From NCBI GenBank assembly GCA_964436855.1, contig CAYTED010000008.1:4158-68157 (forward strand): DNA of 64,000 nt, given 5' to 3'. Made by a program: the position numbers and the translations under genes. The first letter of the stretch is position 1, and every line of letters begins with the position of its first letter. The notes below the pieces were generated by a model that worked only from the letters and a program-made list of their open reading frames with translations, was not told the origin of the DNA and ran no database searches. The stretch is from an uncultured Bdellovibrionales bacterium. Its GTDB lineage: Bacteria > Patescibacteriota > Minisyncoccia > Moranbacterales > UBA1568. Positions 16,475-26,808 of this stretch are shown piece by piece.

Positions 16475-16510
16475 AAAAATCTCCCTTTCGGGAGATTTCT
16501 CATAATGTAC

Positions 16511-17371
16511 TTATGCAAATGTTTTTAACAGTTCAGTAAATGTTTCTTCTTCGAATGTATCTTGGTGGAGCGGTCTATCATTCGATCGAACAACGGTTTC
16601 GTACGGCTCTTTATCAGGATTTTTATAGATCACGCCAAGGGGCATTTTATCCGTTTCAAAAGCTTTTTCCATCGCCGCCATTCGATCGGTCGGGTCATAG
16701 GTTTCATCGAGCAGATAGGTATGTTCGGTAAACCATTGATACGTATTTACTTTATTGAAGACAACGCATGGCTGAAAAACATCGAGCAGCACGTATCCTT
16801 TATCCCAGAGAAGCGCCTGTTTGAAAATCTCTTTTGCCTGCTGAATATTTCCTGCATTTGCCCGAGCGACAAATGATGCGTCGAGCGATACCGCGACCGC
16901 AATTGGATTAAACGGGTCCAGAAGAACACCATTGACCTGTACCGGCGTCTGCAAGCCTTTTTCGGATGTCGGTGATGCTTGGCCTTTCGTCAGACCATAA
17001 ATCATATTGTTGTGCACGATATTTACAATACCGGAATTTCGACGAATGGTATGGACGAAATGGTTACCTCCTTCGCCATAAACACAACCGTCTCCGGATT
17101 CCGCAATCACTTTTAACTTTGGATTGGCAAGTTTGATTGCCGTTGCCGCCGGAAGTGACCTCCCATGCAAACCGTTAAACACATTCATACGAACATAGTG
17201 CGGCGTTTTGGCCGCTTGCCCGATACCCGATGTCATAACTATTTCTTCCGGCGAATACCCAAGTTCGGAAAGCGCCATCTTGAGAATAGAGAGAATGGGA
17301 AAATTTCCACACCCCGGACACCATGCAATATCAGTGTCATGCGGCATGTTAAATTTTTGTTGATCGGCCAT
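16511..17371 (-). CDS. korB: 2-oxoacid:ferredoxin oxidoreductase beta subunit (TPP-binding)
   Basis: [41 protein letters not shown] (TPP-binding motif). Confidence 0.85.
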
Positions 17372-17378
17372 ACGTCAT

Positions 17379-17401
17379 GATTTAAGATTTTTGATTTATG
17401 A
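17379..17401. repeat. Left arm of 23-bp inverted repeat bracketing the four-helix-bundle gene
   Basis: GATTTAAGATTTTTGATTTATGA, 22/23 identical to the reverse complement of 17785-17807; overlaps the stop codon of the enclosed ORF. Confidence 0.7.
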
Positions 17402-17788
17402 TTTTAGAATGTCCTTCGATTTTTTGATCAGACCACTCAAAAGCTTATGTGCGGTATTCGCCTGTTCTGCAATCTCATGAAACACTTCTTTTTGTAGATA
17501 TTCTATGTCTTTCGCAAGCAACAACTGATTCTTTAATTCCGTAAGCGATCCCTGTGCTATATAATAAAAATGAACTTTTTCTTTATATGTCTGCCGACCA
17601 AAACCTTCAGCAATATTGGAAGTTATTGAAATAGCAGCACGCCTCATTTGATCAACCAAAGAATATACCGCTTCCTTTGGAAACTTCTTCGTTATTTTAT
17701 ATATCATGATAACAAGCTTGTGTGACTCACTCCAAGCATTGAGATCAGTAAATGAGCGTATCTTTACGATTTCAGATTTCCCATTCAT
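17396..17788 (-). CDS. Four-helix-bundle protein (TIGR02436; 23S rRNA intervening-sequence protein / Avd family)
   Basis: Signature KFPKEAVYSLVDQMRRAAISITSNIAEGFGRQTYKEKVHFYYIAQGSLTELKNQLLLA. Inserted between korB and korA. Confidence 0.8.
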   Translation of the reverse strand: MNGKSEIVKIRSFTDLNAWSESHKLVIMIYKITKKFPKEAVYSLVDQMRRAAISITSNIAEGFGRQTYKEKVHFYYIAQGSLTELKNQLLLAKDIEYLQKEVFHEIAEQANTAHKLLSGLIKKSKDILKS

Positions 17789-19836: not shown

Positions 19837-20835
19837 TTATCCATTTTTCGATTTATAGCCTGACAATTCCTGTTTCAGGGTATATGCATTTCCGTGAGAA
19901 AGCAACCCGATATATGAGGCAAATACCTTTTCATCGACATTCTTCCGAATATTCTGAAACATCTTCTTTTTGGTGATCGTGCGAAGTGTTCGACAATGAG
20001 GAAAGTGCACCCAACCGAGAAAATCCACTCCTGATGCCCATGTCTTTATGAAAATCTTCTTGTCATGGAGCGAAAGCTTCAGTTTTTCCGATAAAAAATG
20101 ATCCAGGTCAACAACAATATCCCGCAAATACTCTCCCTTCTCCGAAAAAATCACGAAATCATCGGCATATCGAATGTAGTGTCGGATTTTCAATTTCCGC
20201 TTCACAAACTGATCAAATTCATTCAGATAAATATTAGAGAAAAGCTGACTTGTCAGGTTCCCGAGAGGAAGTCCAACGCCCTTCATTCCTCTCGTTTCGA
20301 AGCTTCGAATGATCTTTTCCAAAAGAATGAGGATATCCTGATCTTCAATATGTCGCTTGAGAATTTCCAGTAATACGCTGTGCTCTATCGATGCGAAAAA
20401 TTTCCTAATATCACATTTCAATACAAAACATTGCCGAGTATTGTTTTTTGACACTCTTCGCGCGAATACCCGAAAACGATTGATTGCCCTCAGTGCTCCT
20501 TTTTCCTCCCTACAGGAATACGAATCAAATATGAATCGATCATCGAAATATGTTTTCAGAGACCGGTAGATGATATGATGGACGATCCTGTCACGAACTG
20601 CAGCTTTGTGAATATCGCGAGGTTTCGGATCTGAAACCCTGAAAGCCCAATATGATCCATGAGTATATTTCCGACTTTTCAAATCAACCTGCAATACGAA
20701 GAGATTTTCCATAAGACGCATTTCGAACTCCGCAACATCACTCTGTTTACGCTTCCCAGCAACAAATTTCTGCCACGCCGAAAACACGACTTCCAGCGAT
20801 GTGATATCATCATATTTGAGATCCAATTTTTTCAT
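19837..20835 (-). CDS. Diversity-generating retroelement (DGR) reverse transcriptase
   Basis: RT motifs PRDIHKAAVRDRIVHH (1), KCDIRKFFASIEH (2), the DGR-specific LPLGNLTSQLFSNIYLNEFD (motif 4 with SQ in place of QG), YIRYADDFVIFS (YxDD), GVDFLGW. About 330 aa, the size typical of DGR RTs. Confidence 0.9.
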   Translation of the reverse strand: MKKLDLKYDDITSLEVVFSAWQKFVAGKRKQSDVAEFEMRLMENLFVLQVDLKSRKYTHGSYWAFRVSDPKPRDIHKAAVRDRIVHHIIYRSLKTYFDDRFIFDSYSCREEKGALRAINRFRVFARRVSKNNTRQCFVLKCDIRKFFASIEHSVLLEILKRHIEDQDILILLEKIIRSFETRGMKGVGLPLGNLTSQLFSNIYLNEFDQFVKRKLKIRHYIRYADDFVIFSEKGEYLRDIVVDLDHFLSEKLKLSLHDKKIFIKTWASGVDFLGWVHFPHCRTLRTITKKKMFQNIRKNVDEKVFASYIGLLSHGNAYTLKQELSGYKSKNG

Positions 20836-20887
20836 TTTTTATTCCTATGAATACCCCCCCCCTCGGCTTTCCAGTATCAGCGTCAAG

Positions 20888-21244
20888 ATGCTCGCTTTCT
20901 ATACCGAGTGGCATGACATCCTGACGAGACATATCCCGAAGATCGAGCGCTATTCGATCGGCATGCGCATCGACAATCTTTTTTCAGGCATTCTCGAAGA
21001 CATCGCTCTCGCGCAATTTTCCCTTCCTGAATACAAAATCCCTTATATCAAGCGCGCTATCGGAAAGAATGATACGCTCAAATTCATGCTCTATGCGCTT
21101 TTCAATTTGAAAGGCATTGACGAGAAAAAATTCATTTCCCTTTCCGAAAAAACGGAGGAGATCGGTCGCATGCTCTATGGATGGAAATGCAAAATGGAAC
21201 AAAAACCGCCAGAGCGACAGTATTCCGGCGGAAAAAATTTGTGA
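20888..21244 (+). CDS. avd: Avd-like accessory variability determinant (four-helix-bundle family), divergent from the RT
   Basis: IPKIERYSIGMRIDNLFSGILEDIALAQ and C-terminal EKTEEIGRMLYGWKCKMEQK parallel the TIGR02436/Avd family. Compare PKEERYgLtsQlrRaavSI...EKIEEvkkMLiGli, and Bordetella Avd ...AEVGRILGSWIAR. The stop lies 3 nt before the TR. Confidence 0.5.
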   Translation: MLAFYTEWHDILTRHIPKIERYSIGMRIDNLFSGILEDIALAQFSLPEYKIPYIKRAIGKNDTLKFMLYALFNLKGIDEKKFISLSEKTEEIGRMLYGWKCKMEQKPPERQYSGGKNL

Positions 21245-21247
21245 GTA

Positions 21248-21371
21248 TCGAGGAGCACAGCACGCTCGTTCGAGTCCCAGTCGTTGTCCAGCCAATTCGC
21301 ATTCCGGTTGAACTTCGAGCCATTCCAGTTCGAGCGAGGCACATTCCAGTGGCCGTCCTTGTCACGCAACA
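21248..21371 (-). repeat. DGR template repeat (TR)
   Basis: 124-nt direct repeat of 21699-21822 with no indels. 15 mismatches, every one at a T on the plus strand (an A on the minus strand) in this copy. Conceptual peptide GHWNVPRSNWNGSKFNRNANWLDNDWDSNERAVLL is rich in AAY (Asn) codons. Confidence 0.9.
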
Positions 21372-21691: not shown

Positions 21692-23935
21692 TCATTTCTC
21701 GAGGAGCACAGCACGCTCGTGCGAGCCCCAGTCGCTGTCCAGCCAATGCGCATGCCGGCCGAACCCCGAGCCATCCCAGTACGAGCGAGGCACATACCAG
21801 TGGCCGCCCTCGCCACGCAACACAGAACCAGGGCAGAAGAACCAATTCCCATCCTTGAGTTCCTGTGGTGTTCGATCAGGATTTTCAATCATCCATTTCC
21901 AATATTCGATACCGGGAATATGATGTGTGGCTCCGTAAGTACCAATGATATGCTTCATCACCTCGTACCGCTTCTTTCCGACAAATGCCGAGAGGTCCGG
22001 GATAAATACTTTCGCTCGCTCAAAATCAAGTCCTTGCGTTTCGGGATTGAGAGTGTATTCTCCGATTTTGTTTGCATCGATATCCTGTGAGAGCTGTTCA
22101 TAATCAAGCGCACTCGGGTTTTGAAATGCTGCTTCCTGTTTCGCATTGTTCACGATTTTTTTGCTCCACCACATCTTGAATGTCTCAAAGAGAAAGGGTT
22201 TATTTCCTTCCTTCAGTATCTCGATATCCAGATCCGCTGCTACATCCACTCCTTCCTTATCCACTTCACCACCCAAAAGATCTGCTACTGCACCTTTCAA
22301 ATCAGGAGAGAATTCTTTCATTTCTGCCAATTCTTTCAGTGTTATTATTCTTTCTTTTTTCGATCGTTCGATCGTAGCTTTGATAGCCACATCATCCCTC
22401 CCTTGCTTGAGCGCACTCACATCGAATATATTCTGTGGTAAACCAAGCTCTGCCGGCGTCACCGTTCGGAGAAATCCTTTCAGAGCGAAAATTTTTGCCG
22501 CCAATACGCGATCGCTTTCCGGATATTCCTTGAAGGTGATTCCAGTCTTGATCGCCTGATCAAGAAATTCTACGAATGAATTCCCCGGATTCAATCGCCG
22601 CTCCGTTCCCCATCGCTCCAAGATCGCCTCAACTGTTCCCTGTGTGCCCACAAACTTCTTCAGTCCCGGCTTCTTACCTGAAGCATCCTTCACGCCAATG
22701 AGCTGCGCTGTCGCATTGCGCACCGATGGTTCATAGTATGCAGCCTGAATTTCTTCCATAGCCTCGCAGAATTTCGGCAGCGTCGTTTCGAGATCATAGT
22801 CCGATAGCATGATACTTCCATCGCGATCCATCAATCTTGCCTTCATGATATCAAATGCCTCATCCTTCGGCGTGTAGAGGATTTCGAGATTATTCTGCTC
22901 GAATTCTCGGGCGATTTCCGGCGGGAGATCCTGCCGTTCTGGATTTTTTTCAGACTTCAGATTGGCTGTAAAAATCATCTGGAATCCCGGTTCGATACGA
23001 ACGTCTCCATTTCCTGGGATGTTGATTATATCACCTACCTTCGCATTTGCCACGCCTTTCATAAACACCATAATATCCTTCGGGAGCGCCGTGAATTCAT
23101 CGAATATTACCGTTTTTCCCTCTTTGATCGCTCGCGCCAAAGGACCGTAGATATCCACGGTCTCTATCGCGCCATGCTCGCCCCTGGCACGAATCCTGGT
23201 CTTTCCCCAAATATGTGATTCCCGCGTCTGCGGCGTACAATACACCATCTCAGCGCGCTTGCCAGTAAAGTGTTCAGCAGCATATCGTGCAAGCGAAGTT
23301 TTTCCGGTTCCCGTCGGTCCATGGAGAAACATCGGTTTGCCATGAATTATGCGCTTTCCGATCTCGCTCAGGTACTTCTCTACGGATGGTGTATGAACGA
23401 TATGCCCTTCTTGGAAGAGGTCGCCACGGAAATCCATCAATTCAAACATCCTCCATTCCGTCGGATGATCCTTTTTTACCTCTTTCAGTCGAGCGAGAAG
23501 TTCTGGCTTTGCTTGTCTAATCTTCTCAAGCGACCGATCAAGAGCCATGATCGGCCTTGCAGCCTGCTCACGCAGGCAATATATCTCGAAATTCGTCACA
23601 CCGCGAAAGTCTTTTTCCAAGGAAGCAAACGCCTCATATACTGATCCGATCTGTTTTCTGATCGATTCCTTGTCTATGCGCGCTGAAAGCTTGTCACCTT
23701 CCGATTCCAGTCTCTGTCTCTGCAAAAATTCCTTCGCCTTGGAAAAAGCCAACTTCTCACCTTCGCCTTTTGGAATATGAAATTCTTTCGCCTGCTCATT
23801 GAGATCTGCTTTTGATTCTTGGAGATCGGACCGCAATACATCTGGAACACCCTGATTTCTCGCTTCGCGCAATGCATGACGGACCGTTTTCCGCTCTTCG
23901 GAAATCCGGTGAAAATTTTGTATTGGTTTTTCCAT
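21692..23935 (-). CDS. DGR target protein: cytoplasmic MoxR/CbbQ-like AAA+ (AAA_5) ATPase with C-terminal C-type-lectin/FGE-fold variable domain
   Basis: No signal peptide. Walker A FLHGPTGTGKTSLARYAA, Walker B VIFDEF. C-terminal GNWFFCPGSVLRGEGGHWYVPRSYWDGSGF... is encoded by the VR. Confidence 0.85.
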   Translation of the reverse strand: MEKPIQNFHRISEERKTVRHALREARNQGVPDVLRSDLQESKADLNEQAKEFHIPKGEGEKLAFSKAKEFLQRQRLESEGDKLSARIDKESIRKQIGSVYEAFASLEKDFRGVTNFEIYCLREQAARPIMALDRSLEKIRQAKPELLARLKEVKKDHPTEWRMFELMDFRGDLFQEGHIVHTPSVEKYLSEIGKRIIHGKPMFLHGPTGTGKTSLARYAAEHFTGKRAEMVYCTPQTRESHIWGKTRIRARGEHGAIETVDIYGPLARAIKEGKTVIFDEFTALPKDIMVFMKGVANAKVGDIINIPGNGDVRIEPGFQMIFTANLKSEKNPERQDLPPEIAREFEQNNLEILYTPKDEAFDIMKARLMDRDGSIMLSDYDLETTLPKFCEAMEEIQAAYYEPSVRNATAQLIGVKDASGKKPGLKKFVGTQGTVEAILERWGTERRLNPGNSFVEFLDQAIKTGITFKEYPESDRVLAAKIFALKGFLRTVTPAELGLPQNIFDVSALKQGRDDVAIKATIERSKKERIITLKELAEMKEFSPDLKGAVADLLGGEVDKEGVDVAADLDIEILKEGNKPFLFETFKMWWSKKIVNNAKQEAAFQNPSALDYEQLSQDIDANKIGEYTLNPETQGLDFERAKVFIPDLSAFVGKKRYEVMKHIIGTYGATHHIPGIEYWKWMIENPDRTPQELKDGNWFFCPGSVLRGEGGHWYVPRSYWDGSGFGRHAHWLDSDWGSHERAVLLEK
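21699..21822 (-). repeat. DGR variable repeat (VR) at the 3' end of the target gene
   Basis: Counterpart of the TR. Encodes GHWYVPRSYWDGSGFGRHAHWLDSDWGSHERAVLL, so every difference from the TR peptide falls at a TR-adenine codon (N to Y/D/G/H/S, K to G, D to G). The last 20 nt (GC-rich, 21699-21720) are identical to the TR (IMH-like). Confidence 0.9.
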
Positions 23936-23946
23936 AATGTTTGTTT

Positions 23947-24567
23947 TTATTCCTCACTCACACTTATTTTCTTGAGCACGGACTGAATTGTTTCAATATC
24001 CGCTTCGAACCCCGGACGAAATATCACGGATTCCGTATAATCGATATCCTCAAAATATGCGAGTGCCGATCGGAATATCTTTTCATTAAATTCACCTCCG
24101 AATATCTGCTTCGACTTTTCTATTACCTGCTTCAAAGAATACTGTTTTGAAAGAATAAAAAAGAGGTCGACATAATCCTTCCATTTCGATCTCCTTCCAA
24201 GCGCATATGCCTTCATAGCCGAGAGCGTCAACACATCCGCAATATGTATCGTGCCATCAAGAGCGATATCCGCTTTGAAAGGGAATGGGTATGACAAAAA
24301 AGTCATCTTCACTCCTTTTACGACCACCGTATATTCACTATTATTTTTTACCAGCACTATGAAGTTCCGGTCTACTTCGGAAATCTTTTTCCGAAGATCA
24401 GCAACATCCAGCTCCCCATTGGTAAACAGATCAAAATCGATCGATTCGCGATGACCAAGCTGCAATGCGATAGCCGTTCCGCCACACAACGTAAAATCCT
24501 TCTCCATCTTTCTTAGAAGTGGCAACAGTGCTTGCTGCGAAGGGGAGAGTATTTCTTTATGCAGCAT
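23947..24567 (-). CDS. AbiEii/AbiGii-family nucleotidyltransferase toxin (DUF1814)
   Basis: FTLCGGTAIALQLGHRESIDFDLF matches the AbiEii N-terminal NTase motif (GGTAL...R.S.D.D). 206 aa. Confidence 0.7.
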   Translation of the reverse strand: MLHKEILSPSQQALLPLLRKMEKDFTLCGGTAIALQLGHRESIDFDLFTNGELDVADLRKKISEVDRNFIVLVKNNSEYTVVVKGVKMTFLSYPFPFKADIALDGTIHIADVLTLSAMKAYALGRRSKWKDYVDLFFILSKQYSLKQVIEKSKQIFGGEFNEKIFRSALAYFEDIDYTESVIFRPGFEADIETIQSVLKKISVSEE

Positions 24568-24826
24568 AGCGATTGAAATAGAGCTGAAAAAAATTCTTTA
24601 TTTCCGGTCGATAATTCGTCCTCTGCATATCTGAACGCTTTCTGAAATCTTCTGCAACCTTTTCTTTTCCCAAAATAGAGATCAATCCCTGCACATCCTC
24701 CCATGTTCCATAATTGAGAACGTGTTCTACAATAGACTCTTCCGACAATCGCGCTACATCTGCAACATACCAGACAAGGTATGATCTCTTTTCAATAAAA
24801 TCTCGGAGTTTTTCCTGTTGATTCAT
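24557..24826 (-). CDS. Small protein overlapping the AbiEii toxin start by 11 nt (putative cognate antitoxin/partner)
   Basis: 89 aa with translational coupling to the toxin gene; no confident family assignment. Confidence 0.35.
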   Translation of the reverse strand: MNQQEKLRDFIEKRSYLVWYVADVARLSEESIVEHVLNYGTWEDVQGLISILGKEKVAEDFRKRSDMQRTNYRPEIKNFFQLYFNRYAA

Positions 24827-24888
24827 AATGAATAAGTATCAGAGTACCCTTATTTTAACACAAAAATACCCTTTCTACAAGCCGAAAA

Positions 24889-26808
24889 CTATACATCAGC
24901 AAGATGTTCTTGCAATACATCTGCAAGAATGTTTGGGAGTTTTTCTGCTGTTTCCGCAAGCTTGGCCTCTGGAGCATAGGTTGTCAGGGCTGGCTTGCCA
25001 TCTCTCGTAATGCCGATACCGATAACGATCACCCTTTGCTTTCTCAAGGTTTTCAATACTCTCTCAACGCGCGATGGATCATCACTCTCTCCATCCGTAA
25101 AGATAATGACGATCTTTTTCAGTTCTCCTTCCGTTATTAAATATTCCCTATCCTGATCAATGCTGCGTGCGATGGTTTCAAGCGGCACAAAATCAGTCGT
25201 TGATCCGGAACACGTTCCGATTTTCGCTGCTGTTTCGATTCGTTCTTTTTCCGAAAGATCATTCGAGAGACTCTTCAAAGGAATACTATCTTCCGAAGAT
25301 GACTGAAAGGAAAATATTTCCGAACATATCTCCAGCGGCTTTTCCAGGTCATATGATGATTCCTTGGCAAGATCGGAAAATTCCTTGAGTGCTTCCATAA
25401 ACAAAATAACCGCCTTCTGCTGCTCGAGTTTCTTTTTCCCTTCCATAGATGTCGAGCGGTCGCATACGAGCGTGATTTCCACTCTCCCGAAGCGTTTTCC
25501 TTTTTGGATTCGGATATCATGCGTCTCCCATGCTTTCGGCTCGAAATCTCCCGCTTTCGCCCGCACTACAAGCTCGACCGGGTCCACCAAGTCCTCACCC
25601 TCCTCCACTGGATAGCGGGGCGCCGGAACTTCTTTTCTTCGCCTTGAAATAATCCGGGAAATCAGTTCCCGCAAGTCTTCAATAACACTCCGATTCGTCT
25701 CCGGATTGATGATTTTTCTCATTGCATCTGCGATAGATCGATACCGCTTCAGATCTTCTTTTTTCACTCCGAGTTTTTCTGCATATTCCTTGTCCGCCCG
25801 GTCGAGCGGATCACCCTGCGCTTCCTGCCACTTCTTGAATGCCTCCTGCTCTTTCTCTACTGGAACAGCATTTGGAACGCGCTTGTCGGCACGGTCATAT
25901 GCCTCTTTGAATGTCTCGTTCGGATTCTTTTTTTCTTTGCTGTTTTTCTCTTTTCCGAATTTTTCTTGCTTCTGTCCTGAAGGAGAAGACTGCGACGACT
26001 CGCCTTGCTCTCCTTCTTTTTTATCATCACTTGATTTTCCATCTTTTCCTTTCTCGTCTTGCCTTTCTTCTTCCTCCTCATCCTTCTTGAGCAATGCTTC
26101 CACCTTCGGCCAGACGTATCTGTCCTGTAATTTCAAACGAACAGACATCGGAGTGCCAGGATCCGCCATAATCTGAAAGAGTGATCTACCATCCTTTGCG
26201 CGTATATTTTTCAATTCATCGATCGCTTCGCGCACTTCTGGAGCAACCACACATGTCTCATCCAGCACTCTTGCCTCACGAAGAATCGCTTGTGGAAGCT
26301 GCAAATGCTTCGGCTCTCCTGAGAGATCAACATTCGGAAAAAGATCCGTGCGATACATATCTTTTTCAATCGCCGCGTATCCTTCGTCTGTTCTTCGTAT
26401 CACCGTTGTATTTTCTCGGATATCCGCGATGCAGTTATCCATCACAGAATATGCTTTCGATGCTGTGATACGTGAAAGATAATTCTGGTACACCTTCTCG
26501 CCACCCTCTTCGGCAAGAAGTTGTTTTTTCTCAAGGAAATGCTCAATCTCATGCAAGGATGCATAGGTCGTTTTCTCATCGGACAATCCTTTTTCCTTGT
26601 AGAATCGCGCATTAAGATAGATATCGTCTGTCTCAAGATCGAACGCGAAAGTATTCAGATTCGCCGGAGCTGGCTTCACATTCACCCTTCCTCTCGCATA
26701 GTGTTCGAACACATCGCGATTCGCTTCGAAATGACGTAAGGCTTCTTCGTGTTCCGATTGATGAACCTCTTTCGGATTGTTCGGTATAGTGAAAATTTTC
26801 TCTCCCAT
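24889..26808 (-). CDS. vWA-domain protein with N-terminal HExxH metallopeptidase-like region (DUF2201-type MoxR partner)
   Basis: HEIEH motif near the N-terminus, acidic/Lys-rich low-complexity middle, C-terminal vWA with MIDAS DRSTSM...IIFTDGESDD...VIVIGIG. Confidence 0.65.
   Translation of the reverse strand: MGEKIFTIPNNPKEVHQSEHEEALRHFEANRDVFEHYARGRVNVKPAPANLNTFAFDLETDDIYLNARFYKEKGLSDEKTTYASLHEIEHFLEKKQLLAEEGGEKVYQNYLSRITASKAYSVMDNCIADIRENTTVIRRTDEGYAAIEKDMYRTDLFPNVDLSGEPKHLQLPQAILREARVLDETCVVAPEVREAIDELKNIRAKDGRSLFQIMADPGTPMSVRLKLQDRYVWPKVEALLKKDEEEEERQDEKGKDGKSSDDKKEGEQGESSQSSPSGQKQEKFGKEKNSKEKKNPNETFKEAYDRADKRVPNAVPVEKEQEAFKKWQEAQGDPLDRADKEYAEKLGVKKEDLKRYRSIADAMRKIINPETNRSVIEDLRELISRIISRRRKEVPAPRYPVEEGEDLVDPVELVVRAKAGDFEPKAWETHDIRIQKGKRFGRVEITLVCDRSTSMEGKKKLEQQKAVILFMEALKEFSDLAKESSYDLEKPLEICSEIFSFQSSSEDSIPLKSLSNDLSEKERIETAAKIGTCSGSTTDFVPLETIARSIDQDREYLITEGELKKIVIIFTDGESDDPSRVERVLKTLRKQRVIVIGIGITRDGKPALTTYAPEAKLAETAEKLPNILADVLQEHLADV

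Follow-up and report, generated by a model that had tools for sequence, protein, structure and literature searches.

What does a cytoplasmic AAA ATPase do when its C-terminal tip is rewritten by a diversity-generating retroelement (DGR), and with which protein does it act? DGRs are unusually abundant in candidate phyla radiation (CPR) bacteria, and the role of their commonest target in these bacteria, which is a cytoplasmic AAA ATPase that ends in a variable tip, has been a standing question. Here we consider one DGR cassette from a contig of an ultra-small Patescibacteria bacterium, of which a stretch of 64,000 nt (referred to below as the window) was analysed; the cassette is read on the minus strand. 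An earlier note on this DNA had described a MoxR/CbbQ-like ATPase with a hypervariable C-terminus, accompanied by a protein that combines a HExxH motif with a von Willebrand factor A (vWA) domain, and had regarded the pair as a candidate sensing or conflict system. The observation is confirmed and the interpretation is partly supported. We propose that the core of the cassette is a two-protein MoxR-type machine with a DGR-rewritten ATPase tip and a function in sensing or conflict, a proposal to which we give an even chance of being correct.

The DGR is complete, and the product of the target gene (21692..23935, minus strand), a 747-aa open reading frame (ORF), is its sole target within the window. 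The variable repeat (VR; 21699..21822, minus strand) forms the last 41 codons of this gene, and the template repeat (TR; 21248..21371, minus strand), rich in AAC/AAT codons, lies 451 nt away. The two repeats, of 124 nt each, are 88% identical; all their mismatches (15/15) fall at TR adenines, and every TR adenine (28/28) occupies codon position 1 or 2. The TR-encoded peptide, rich in Asn, Asp, and Lys, is MLRDKDGHWNVPRSNWNGSKFNRNANWLDNDWDSNERAVLL, and the VR-encoded stretch of the target gene is VLRGEGGHWYVPRSYWDGSGFGRHAHWLDSDWGSHERAVLL. The reverse transcriptase (RT) gene (19837..20835, minus strand; Pfam RVT_1, E 3e-21) encodes the YADD motif and the sequence LGNLTSQ, a DGR hallmark of the (I/L)GxxxSQ type. 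Between TR and RT, in the orientation opposite to that of the target, TR, and RT, is the avd accessory gene (20801..21244, plus strand), whose match to NCBIfam DivGenRetAVD (E 5e-10) is under the equivalog cut-off of 80 bits and whose position and orientation are the same in related loci. There is a 35-nt overlap between its longest ORF and the start of the RT gene, and the true Avd start is probably located downstream of 20835.

Adenine-specific TR/VR pairs were identified in about 30 related loci, and in the family alignment high-entropy VR columns are interleaved with invariant scaffold columns. These hypervariable columns across homologues lend indirect support to the possibility of ongoing diversification in the population. 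With the TR placed between the target stop and antisense avd, the layout is typical of CPR, and it poses the problem of how the TR is transcribed into RNA that then joins the RT. An Rfam scan of the 64-kb window identified no known RNA, and likewise no tRNA gene was found.

The 747-aa target consists of a helical N-terminal region, an AAA_5 ATPase, a second helical region, and the variable C-terminal domain. Pfam AAA_5 matches residues 202-332 with E 7.6e-16 (cut-off 22 bits). The AAA+ module (22736..23347, minus strand, residues 197-400) contains the Walker A motif GPTGTGKTS (23294-23320, minus strand, residues 206-214), the Walker B motif VIFDEF (23093-23110, minus strand, residues 276-281), and the sensor-1 residue N325; the AAA_5 core recognized earlier is therefore real, but its Walker A lies about 205 aa from the N-terminus and not about 250. 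In an alignment of 29 homologues with 41-74% identity, the ATPase is invariant over long stretches as well as at Walker A, Walker B (DEF), and sensor-1 (TANL), and the ATPase core is very strongly conserved among CPR lineages. A profile search of PDB with the target retrieved midasin (2e-8) and NorQ (1.5e-4), the fold search placed the ATPase closest to the AAA modules of CbbQ, NorQ, dynein, and midasin, and the viral structures matching the target are MoxR-like (COG0714) and CobS ATPases. In addition, some family members match Pfam bpMoxR, and NCBIfam yielded no more than a partial GvpN/RFC-type P-loop match. In agreement with the earlier description, the hydropathy scan detected neither a transmembrane segment nor a signal-peptide-like one in the 747-aa protein (maximum 19-residue Kyte-Doolittle mean 1.14). 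Because of the AAA_5 match, the PDB and viral structure matches, and the lack of transmembrane segments and signal peptide, we classify the target, from its sequence, as a cytoplasmic MoxR/CbbQ/NorQ-type AAA+ ATPase with a C-terminal VR.

The same observations bear on the possibility that the target is an exported or surface adhesin in which the ATPase-like region is a degenerate scaffold. CPR cells rely on host attachment, and the DGR targets characterised so far are mostly proteins of the surface or of receptor binding (Roux et al., preprint). Nevertheless, a family with invariant Walker and sensor-1 motifs and a CbbQ/NorQ fold hardly resembles a degenerate scaffold, the target has neither a signal peptide nor a transmembrane segment, and a hydropathy and signal-peptide scan of the partner protein described below also revealed no export signals; we consider an adhesin very improbable. 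The closest relatives of the cytoplasmic ATPase are found in a Patescibacteria metagenome-assembled genome (locus L002, 74% identical), which like L108 comes from the Hainich groundwater series, and in a member of Moraniibacteriota (L001, 68%). Since the phage collection lacked homologues of the partner and matched the target only through distant AAA proteins, a phage origin is unsupported.

The variable-protein domain of the target (21695..22228, minus strand) comprises residues 570-747 (178 aa) and is presumed to be C-type-lectin-like. In its predicted model, with a predicted local distance difference test (pLDDT) score of >90, a strand and two helices are followed by four strands, and the VR supplies the last strands. 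Both this modelled topology and the C-terminal position of the VR would suit the C-type-lectin fold known from other DGR variable proteins.

The domain also occurs alone, in CPR proteins of 170-300 aa. Many relatives of the window cassette possess one or two extra small genes of this size that encode only the C-terminal domain and have their own VR matching the same TR, often just downstream of the vWA gene (L016, 16447-16977; L035, about 16500-17105; L031, 12673-13095 and 15455-15877; L123, 10199-10729); the window lacks such a second target. A different combination is observed in L145 (5421-9818), where an 801-aa protein with the same variable domain (hhalign E 5e-40) is encoded directly upstream of a vWA family member. 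The N-terminal 600 aa of this protein are unrecognised and gave no AAA match, its flanks are housekeeping genes, and there is no RT within 8 kb. Finally, many related contigs (L026, L027, L029, L030, L033, L049, L056, L057, and L061) end within a few hundred bases past the ATPase part, before or at the variable domain, as would be expected if the assembly broke where C-domain/VR sequence is repeated or heterogeneous in the populations.

The candidate partner is encoded two genes upstream of the target on the same strand, as had been observed before. This gene (24889..26808, minus strand) is a 639-aa ORF of zincin-linker-vWA architecture, whose parts, all on the minus strand, are a zincin (gluzincin-like) domain (26041..26775, residues 12-256) with the zinc-binding/catalytic motif HEIEH (26539..26553, residues 86-90), a low-complexity linker rich in K, E, G, and S (25924..26040, residues 257-295), a conserved helical middle domain (25489..25923, residues 296-440), and a vWA domain (24901..25485) with a complete metal ion-dependent adhesion site (MIDAS; DRSTSM 450-455, TTD 537-539, TDG 571-573). 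Among 25 partner homologues, H86, E87, and H90 of HEIEH are invariant, as are the MIDAS residues D450, S452, S454, T537/T538, and D572; N125, D129, and N133 of the N-terminal domain are invariant as well. Pfam VWA matches residues 445-615 (E 3.3e-11), and the domain resembles the vWA domains of midasin, NorD, and BchD.

For the N-terminal domain, the AlphaFold2 model (pLDDT about 90) contains three strands and then the HExxH helix. A profile constructed from 18 N-terminal domains, including one 24%-identical paralogue, matched one family only among solved structures, that of the minigluzincin MJ1213 (E 6e-4). Because this alignment spans both the HExxH helix and the strands preceding it, we assign the N-terminal domain as a putative zincin peptidase domain with intact catalytic residues. 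The linker is disordered (pLDDT about 32) and varies in sequence and length between homologues, and the helical middle domain corresponds to no known family in Pfam at E<=10. Family-level matches in the partner homologues were weak (VWA_CoxE in 12/25, CobT, and YgjP-like zincin). Membership in DUF2201_N/DUF2201, which had been expected for this gene, was rejected, as Pfam gave no match in the window protein or in the 25 homologues even at E<=5; the expected vWA and HExxH parts, in contrast, were both recovered. All 389 homologues of the partner have the zincin-linker-vWA architecture, and in a library of 1.8 billion proteins the family forms 221 clusters (50% identity) at E<=1e-30, nearly all of them with proteins of 600-750 aa.

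To examine the linkage of the two genes, we analysed two sets of loci, one obtained by scanning one genome per species with the ATPase alignment (63 Patescibacteria loci, among them Moranii-, Nomura-, Taylor-, Zambryski-, Kaiser-, Yanofsky-, and Lloydbacteria) and another by scanning metagenome contigs with the vWA alignment (80 loci). All loci were searched by tblastn with the window proteins, and those with enough flanking sequence were considered informative. The vWA gene is present in 19 of the 20 informative ATPase-seeded loci, which have flank on both sides, and the lone exception has a fragmentary ATPase; conversely, the ATPase and RT are both present in 12/13 informative vWA-seeded loci. 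Altogether, co-conservation of the vWA gene with both the ATPase and the DGR extends over >90 Patescibacteria loci, and the vWA gene is co-directional with the ATPase gene in every case. The refuting case named in the earlier note, a vWA gene from an unrelated operon, is thus not borne out. The cassette is widespread in Patescibacteria, and the window contains a chromosomal copy.

Two gene orders were identified. In about one third of loci the order is that of the window, vWA-ATPase-TR-Avd(reverse)-RT, with 26-96 nt from the vWA stop to the ATPase start where the two genes are adjacent. In about two thirds the vWA gene is directly downstream of the RT, giving ATPase-TR-Avd(reverse)-RT-vWA. After this vWA gene there is often another target, small and CLec-only, with its own VR.

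The window also raises the possibility that the vWA gene adjoins the ATPase by coincidence and is part of the operon of its upstream neighbour XseA (28449-26818, minus strand), at the upstream end of the gene order; only 9 nt separate the XseA stop from the vWA start, and the two genes share a strand. However, a homologue of XseA is found beside the cassette in 0/63 related species loci, compared with 19/20 informative loci for the vWA gene. Membership of the vWA gene in an XseA operon is refuted by this neighbourhood analysis, and we give it next to no credence; since XseA adjoins the cassette in no related locus, the 9-nt spacing is explained by compact CPR gene packing. The XseA protein itself, the large subunit of exonuclease VII, carries an HRDC domain at its N-terminus. 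Some DGRs have HRDC proteins among their accessory genes, but for the same reason the link of XseA to this DGR looks coincidental.

The second gene order, with the vWA gene directly downstream of the RT in most loci, would also be expected if the zincin-vWA protein were a DGR accessory similar to Avd, HRDC, or MSL, serving cDNA synthesis or retrohoming. One short Logan contig (L081, 781-3705; P0222) even contains a single 974-aa ORF joining a DGR RT to the zincin-vWA protein, which may be a true fusion or may result from a frameshift or faulty assembly. As this fusion stands alone, the possibility of a frameshift lessens its weight, and several other loci are at variance with the accessory role. 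In four species loci (L018, L020, L028, and L031) the ATPase and vWA genes occur with neither RT nor Avd nearby. In L162 (8001-12887) a distant zincin-vWA member of 777 aa is directly followed by an 835-aa AAA_5 protein; no RT and no TR/VR were found within 8 kb, and an IS110 transposase is located downstream. The CLec protein of L145 is likewise paired with vWA without an RT, and in the loci of the first order, the window lineage included, the vWA gene directly precedes the ATPase gene.

Moreover, the type of partner follows the type of ATPase. A further cassette in L007, 26% identical, likewise has a TR/VR and an RT of its own; in it, a 738-aa zincin-vWA paralogue (hhalign 99.8%) that retains MHEIAHF and the MIDAS precedes a 1090-aa AAA_5 target. 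In the sister cassettes L064 (6557-12229) and L065 (126-4630), from Berkelbacteria and another Patescibacteria, an AAA_5 target of 920-950 aa is preceded not by a zincin-vWA protein but by a large transglutaminase-like protein, in which the transglutaminase core has a thiol-peptidase fold. A partner with a peptidase fold is thus a recurring theme in these DGR cassettes. The RT-less pairs, L162, the second cassette of L007, and the partner swap in L064 and L065 all associate the partner with the ATPase and not with the RT, and we regard an accessory role in the DGR as unlikely.

The earlier note had described the pair as embedded with an Abi toxin. Two genes indeed separate the vWA and ATPase genes in the window, a small DUF6922-like gene for a putative antitoxin (24557..24826, minus strand; Pfam DUF6922, E 4.9e-5, under the curated cut-off) and a gene for an AbiEii-family nucleotidyltransferase toxin (23947..24567, minus strand; Pfam AbiEii, E 1.3e-11), which is also matched by the PADLOC AbiEii models. 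However, since the nearest relatives L001 and L002 lack this pair between the vWA and ATPase genes, it is an insertion outside the core. The DUF6922+AbiEii pair is found also in L014 and L064 (the DUF6922 homologue of L064 has E 4e-15), and the gene upstream of and overlapping AbiEii is DUF6922-like and not AbiEi, so that DUF6922 seems to stand in for the antitoxin AbiEi. AbiEii, with or without DUF6922, is located in or beside cassettes in L014 (1912-2770), L062 (11435-11890), L064 (5549-6485), L114 (10254-12516), L131 (487-1008), L134 (2716-3207), and the window (23947-24826); AbiEii falls within the cassette zone in 9/10 matches (binomial p 0.024), with some of the loci being redundant.

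The remaining neighbours in the window identified by Pfam, besides XseA, AbiEii, and DUF6922, are a DsbA-like protein and, beyond the RT in the gene order, pyruvate:ferredoxin oxidoreductase (PFOR) genes. Between two PFOR subunit genes, 2 kb from the RT, there is a gene for a '23S rRNA intervening sequence protein' (17396-17788), a four-helix-bundle protein of the fold family of Avd with weak DivGenRetAVD and bAvd matches. Most long genes of the window, including rpoB/rpoC, gyrB, and ftsK, are on the minus strand, and GC skew is negative in all 2-kb windows (-0.06 to -0.21).

How might the two core proteins work? In CbbQ-CbbO, NorQ-NorD, and midasin, an AAA_5 ring supplies force and a MIDAS-vWA module engages the client. 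By analogy with these systems, the target ATPase would assemble into a ring, presumably hexameric, presenting several variable domains, and the vWA partner would dock on this ring via a MIDAS contact. The DGR, by rewriting at least 13 codons of the C-terminal domain of the ATPase, would provide each lineage with a different binding surface. The variable domain may then bind a cytoplasmic ligand, most plausibly a protein of a phage or other invader, and ligand binding would be coupled to ATP-driven remodelling, which could either deliver the bound protein to the zincin domain, attached through the flexible linker, or switch the zincin on. The conserved MIDAS-vWA partner with its intact zincin turns an odd protein into a defined two-component module, which predicts ring formation, MIDAS-dependent docking, and ligand-gated proteolysis.

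The architecture of the module suggests a function in sensing or conflict. We favour such a role because of the hypervaried binding surface, the precedent of vWA-MoxR systems with DGRs, the chromosomal position of the cassette, which varies between genomes, and the recurrence of AbiEii. Several observations weigh against it. The variable domain, presumed to have a lectin fold, has no Pfam match at E<=10, a 24-sequence profile of the C-domain family gave no match in PDB, and the fold-search lists for the target are filled by AAA matches. Hence, of the AAA_5 core and the VR-encoded CLec/FGE-type fold that the earlier note had expected in the target, the former and the C-terminal position of the VR were established, but the CLec/FGE-sulfatase fold was not matched. 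Neither a VMAP-like third component nor a recognisable death effector was detected in the window cassette or as a recurring gene in related loci, as judged by gene order and Pfam rather than by dedicated VMAP/iSTAND profiles. The PADLOC defence models match neither protein beyond generic AAA, and the flanks in the window are housekeeping genes (XseA, PFOR, RpoBC), not a defence island. Finally, MoxR-vWA pairs elsewhere are mostly maturation chaperones and not immune sensors.

This last point leads to a serious rival, in which the pair would be a non-immune cytoplasmic machine for remodelling and proteolysis, and the DGR would widen its range of substrates, for example to host-derived or self proteins in episymbiosis. 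The CbbQ and NorQ matches of the target, the high conservation of the ATPase core between CPR lineages, the housekeeping flanks, and the lack of a dedicated toxic effector are all consistent with such a machine. Host-interaction roles for CPR DGRs were proposed by Paul et al. 2017, according to the summary in PMC10907252. On the other hand, a hypervaried binding surface is more typical of arms-race recognition, DGR-diversified vWA-MoxR conflict systems offer an analogy, AbiEii modules are recurrent, and the position of the cassette varies, with the XseA neighbour not conserved. We therefore hold the non-immune machine to be possible, though only tentatively so.

Returning to sensing and conflict, a bolder version can be formulated, in which the cassette would be a self-contained, DGR-programmable intracellular machine for recognition and proteolysis that confers anticipatory immunity at the level of the population. 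Invader proteins would be captured by a ring of hypervariable lectin-type receptors, and remodelling driven by ATP would pass them to the tethered metalloprotease or activate it. The machine would represent, in minimal form with two components, an ancestor or an analogue of the ternary vWA-MoxR systems of multicellular bacteria. To our knowledge, ultra-small CPR bacteria are mostly without CRISPR. We find this version rather doubtful; if the module is a true immune sensor, organisms with genomes of about 1 Mb would possess a compact programmable recognition system.

Comparison with known systems shows which parts of the cassette have precedents. The earlier note had held that its target was not a standard described class, and this has to be corrected: PMC10907252 (Dore et al. 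2024 PNAS), citing Paul et al. 2017, names AAA-CLec fusions as the commonest CPR DGR target, and Wu et al. 2018 (PMC5758913) reported P-loop NTPase and Midasin AAA motifs among the targets of CPR, which include the category g1 / UVR4 'Midasin' targets with the CPR-typical B3 cassette architecture and an unassigned VR fold. The window shares with these cassettes the lineage, the AAA_5/midasin-like target with a C-terminal VR, and the target-TR-Avd-RT layout, and is a member of the CPR AAA-ATPase-CLec DGR class. The role of the ATPase has been addressed by Dore et al. (PMC10907252) only in the speculation that it transduces a signal, and the Roux et al. preprint, which describes CPR targets without transmembrane segments or recognisable domains, left open whether they are truly non-membrane. 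Unlike in the window cassette, no vWA neighbour is mentioned for the systems of Wu et al. 2018 (PMC5758913); Dore et al. and the Roux et al. preprint do not name the conserved zincin-vWA partner either, and it was not found in the literature searched, which did not take in Paul et al. 2017.

Among MoxR-type machines outside DGRs, CbbQ-CbbO and NorQ-NorD serve fixed clients (Rubisco and NO reductase), have no variable domain, DGR, or zincin, and are built of proteins much smaller than those of the window (747 and 639 aa). Midasin/Rea1, a single giant polypeptide of eukaryotes, has six AAA modules and strips assembly factors from ribosomes; it contains neither a variable domain nor a peptidase. 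A parallel to the partner is provided by the DUF2201/COG3864-type proteins, which have an N-terminal HExxH and a vWA-like domain at the C-terminus, next to an AAA_5/MoxR ATPase gene, and thus the same order of parts as the window protein.

The DGR-diversified ternary vWA-MoxR conflict systems reported by Kaur et al. 2020 eLife (PMC7159879) have several features in common with the window cassette, namely a vWA protein together with a MoxR-type ATPase, a lectin-type domain at the C-terminus that is diversified by a DGR, peptidase domains, and the cytoplasmic location of many targets, as do those of Dore et al. The parts are, however, distributed differently. In the Kaur and Dore systems the variable FGS/CLec domain is fused to vWA, MoxR is a separate plain protein, and a VMAP/iSTAND protein forms the third component, whereas in the window cassette it is the ATPase that bears the variable domain, the zincin belongs to the vWA protein, which ends with its vWA domain and lacks any FGS/CLec fusion, and no third component is conserved. 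The ternary systems have been reported from multicellular cyanobacteria, proteobacteria, and actinobacteria, and their RTs belong to clade 5. Thus, both the target class and the theme of DGR, MoxR, and vWA are known, while the arrangement described here differs from them and is restricted to CPR bacteria. The two-component module thereby links the DGRs of CPR bacteria to the MoxR-vWA conflict systems of multicellular bacteria.

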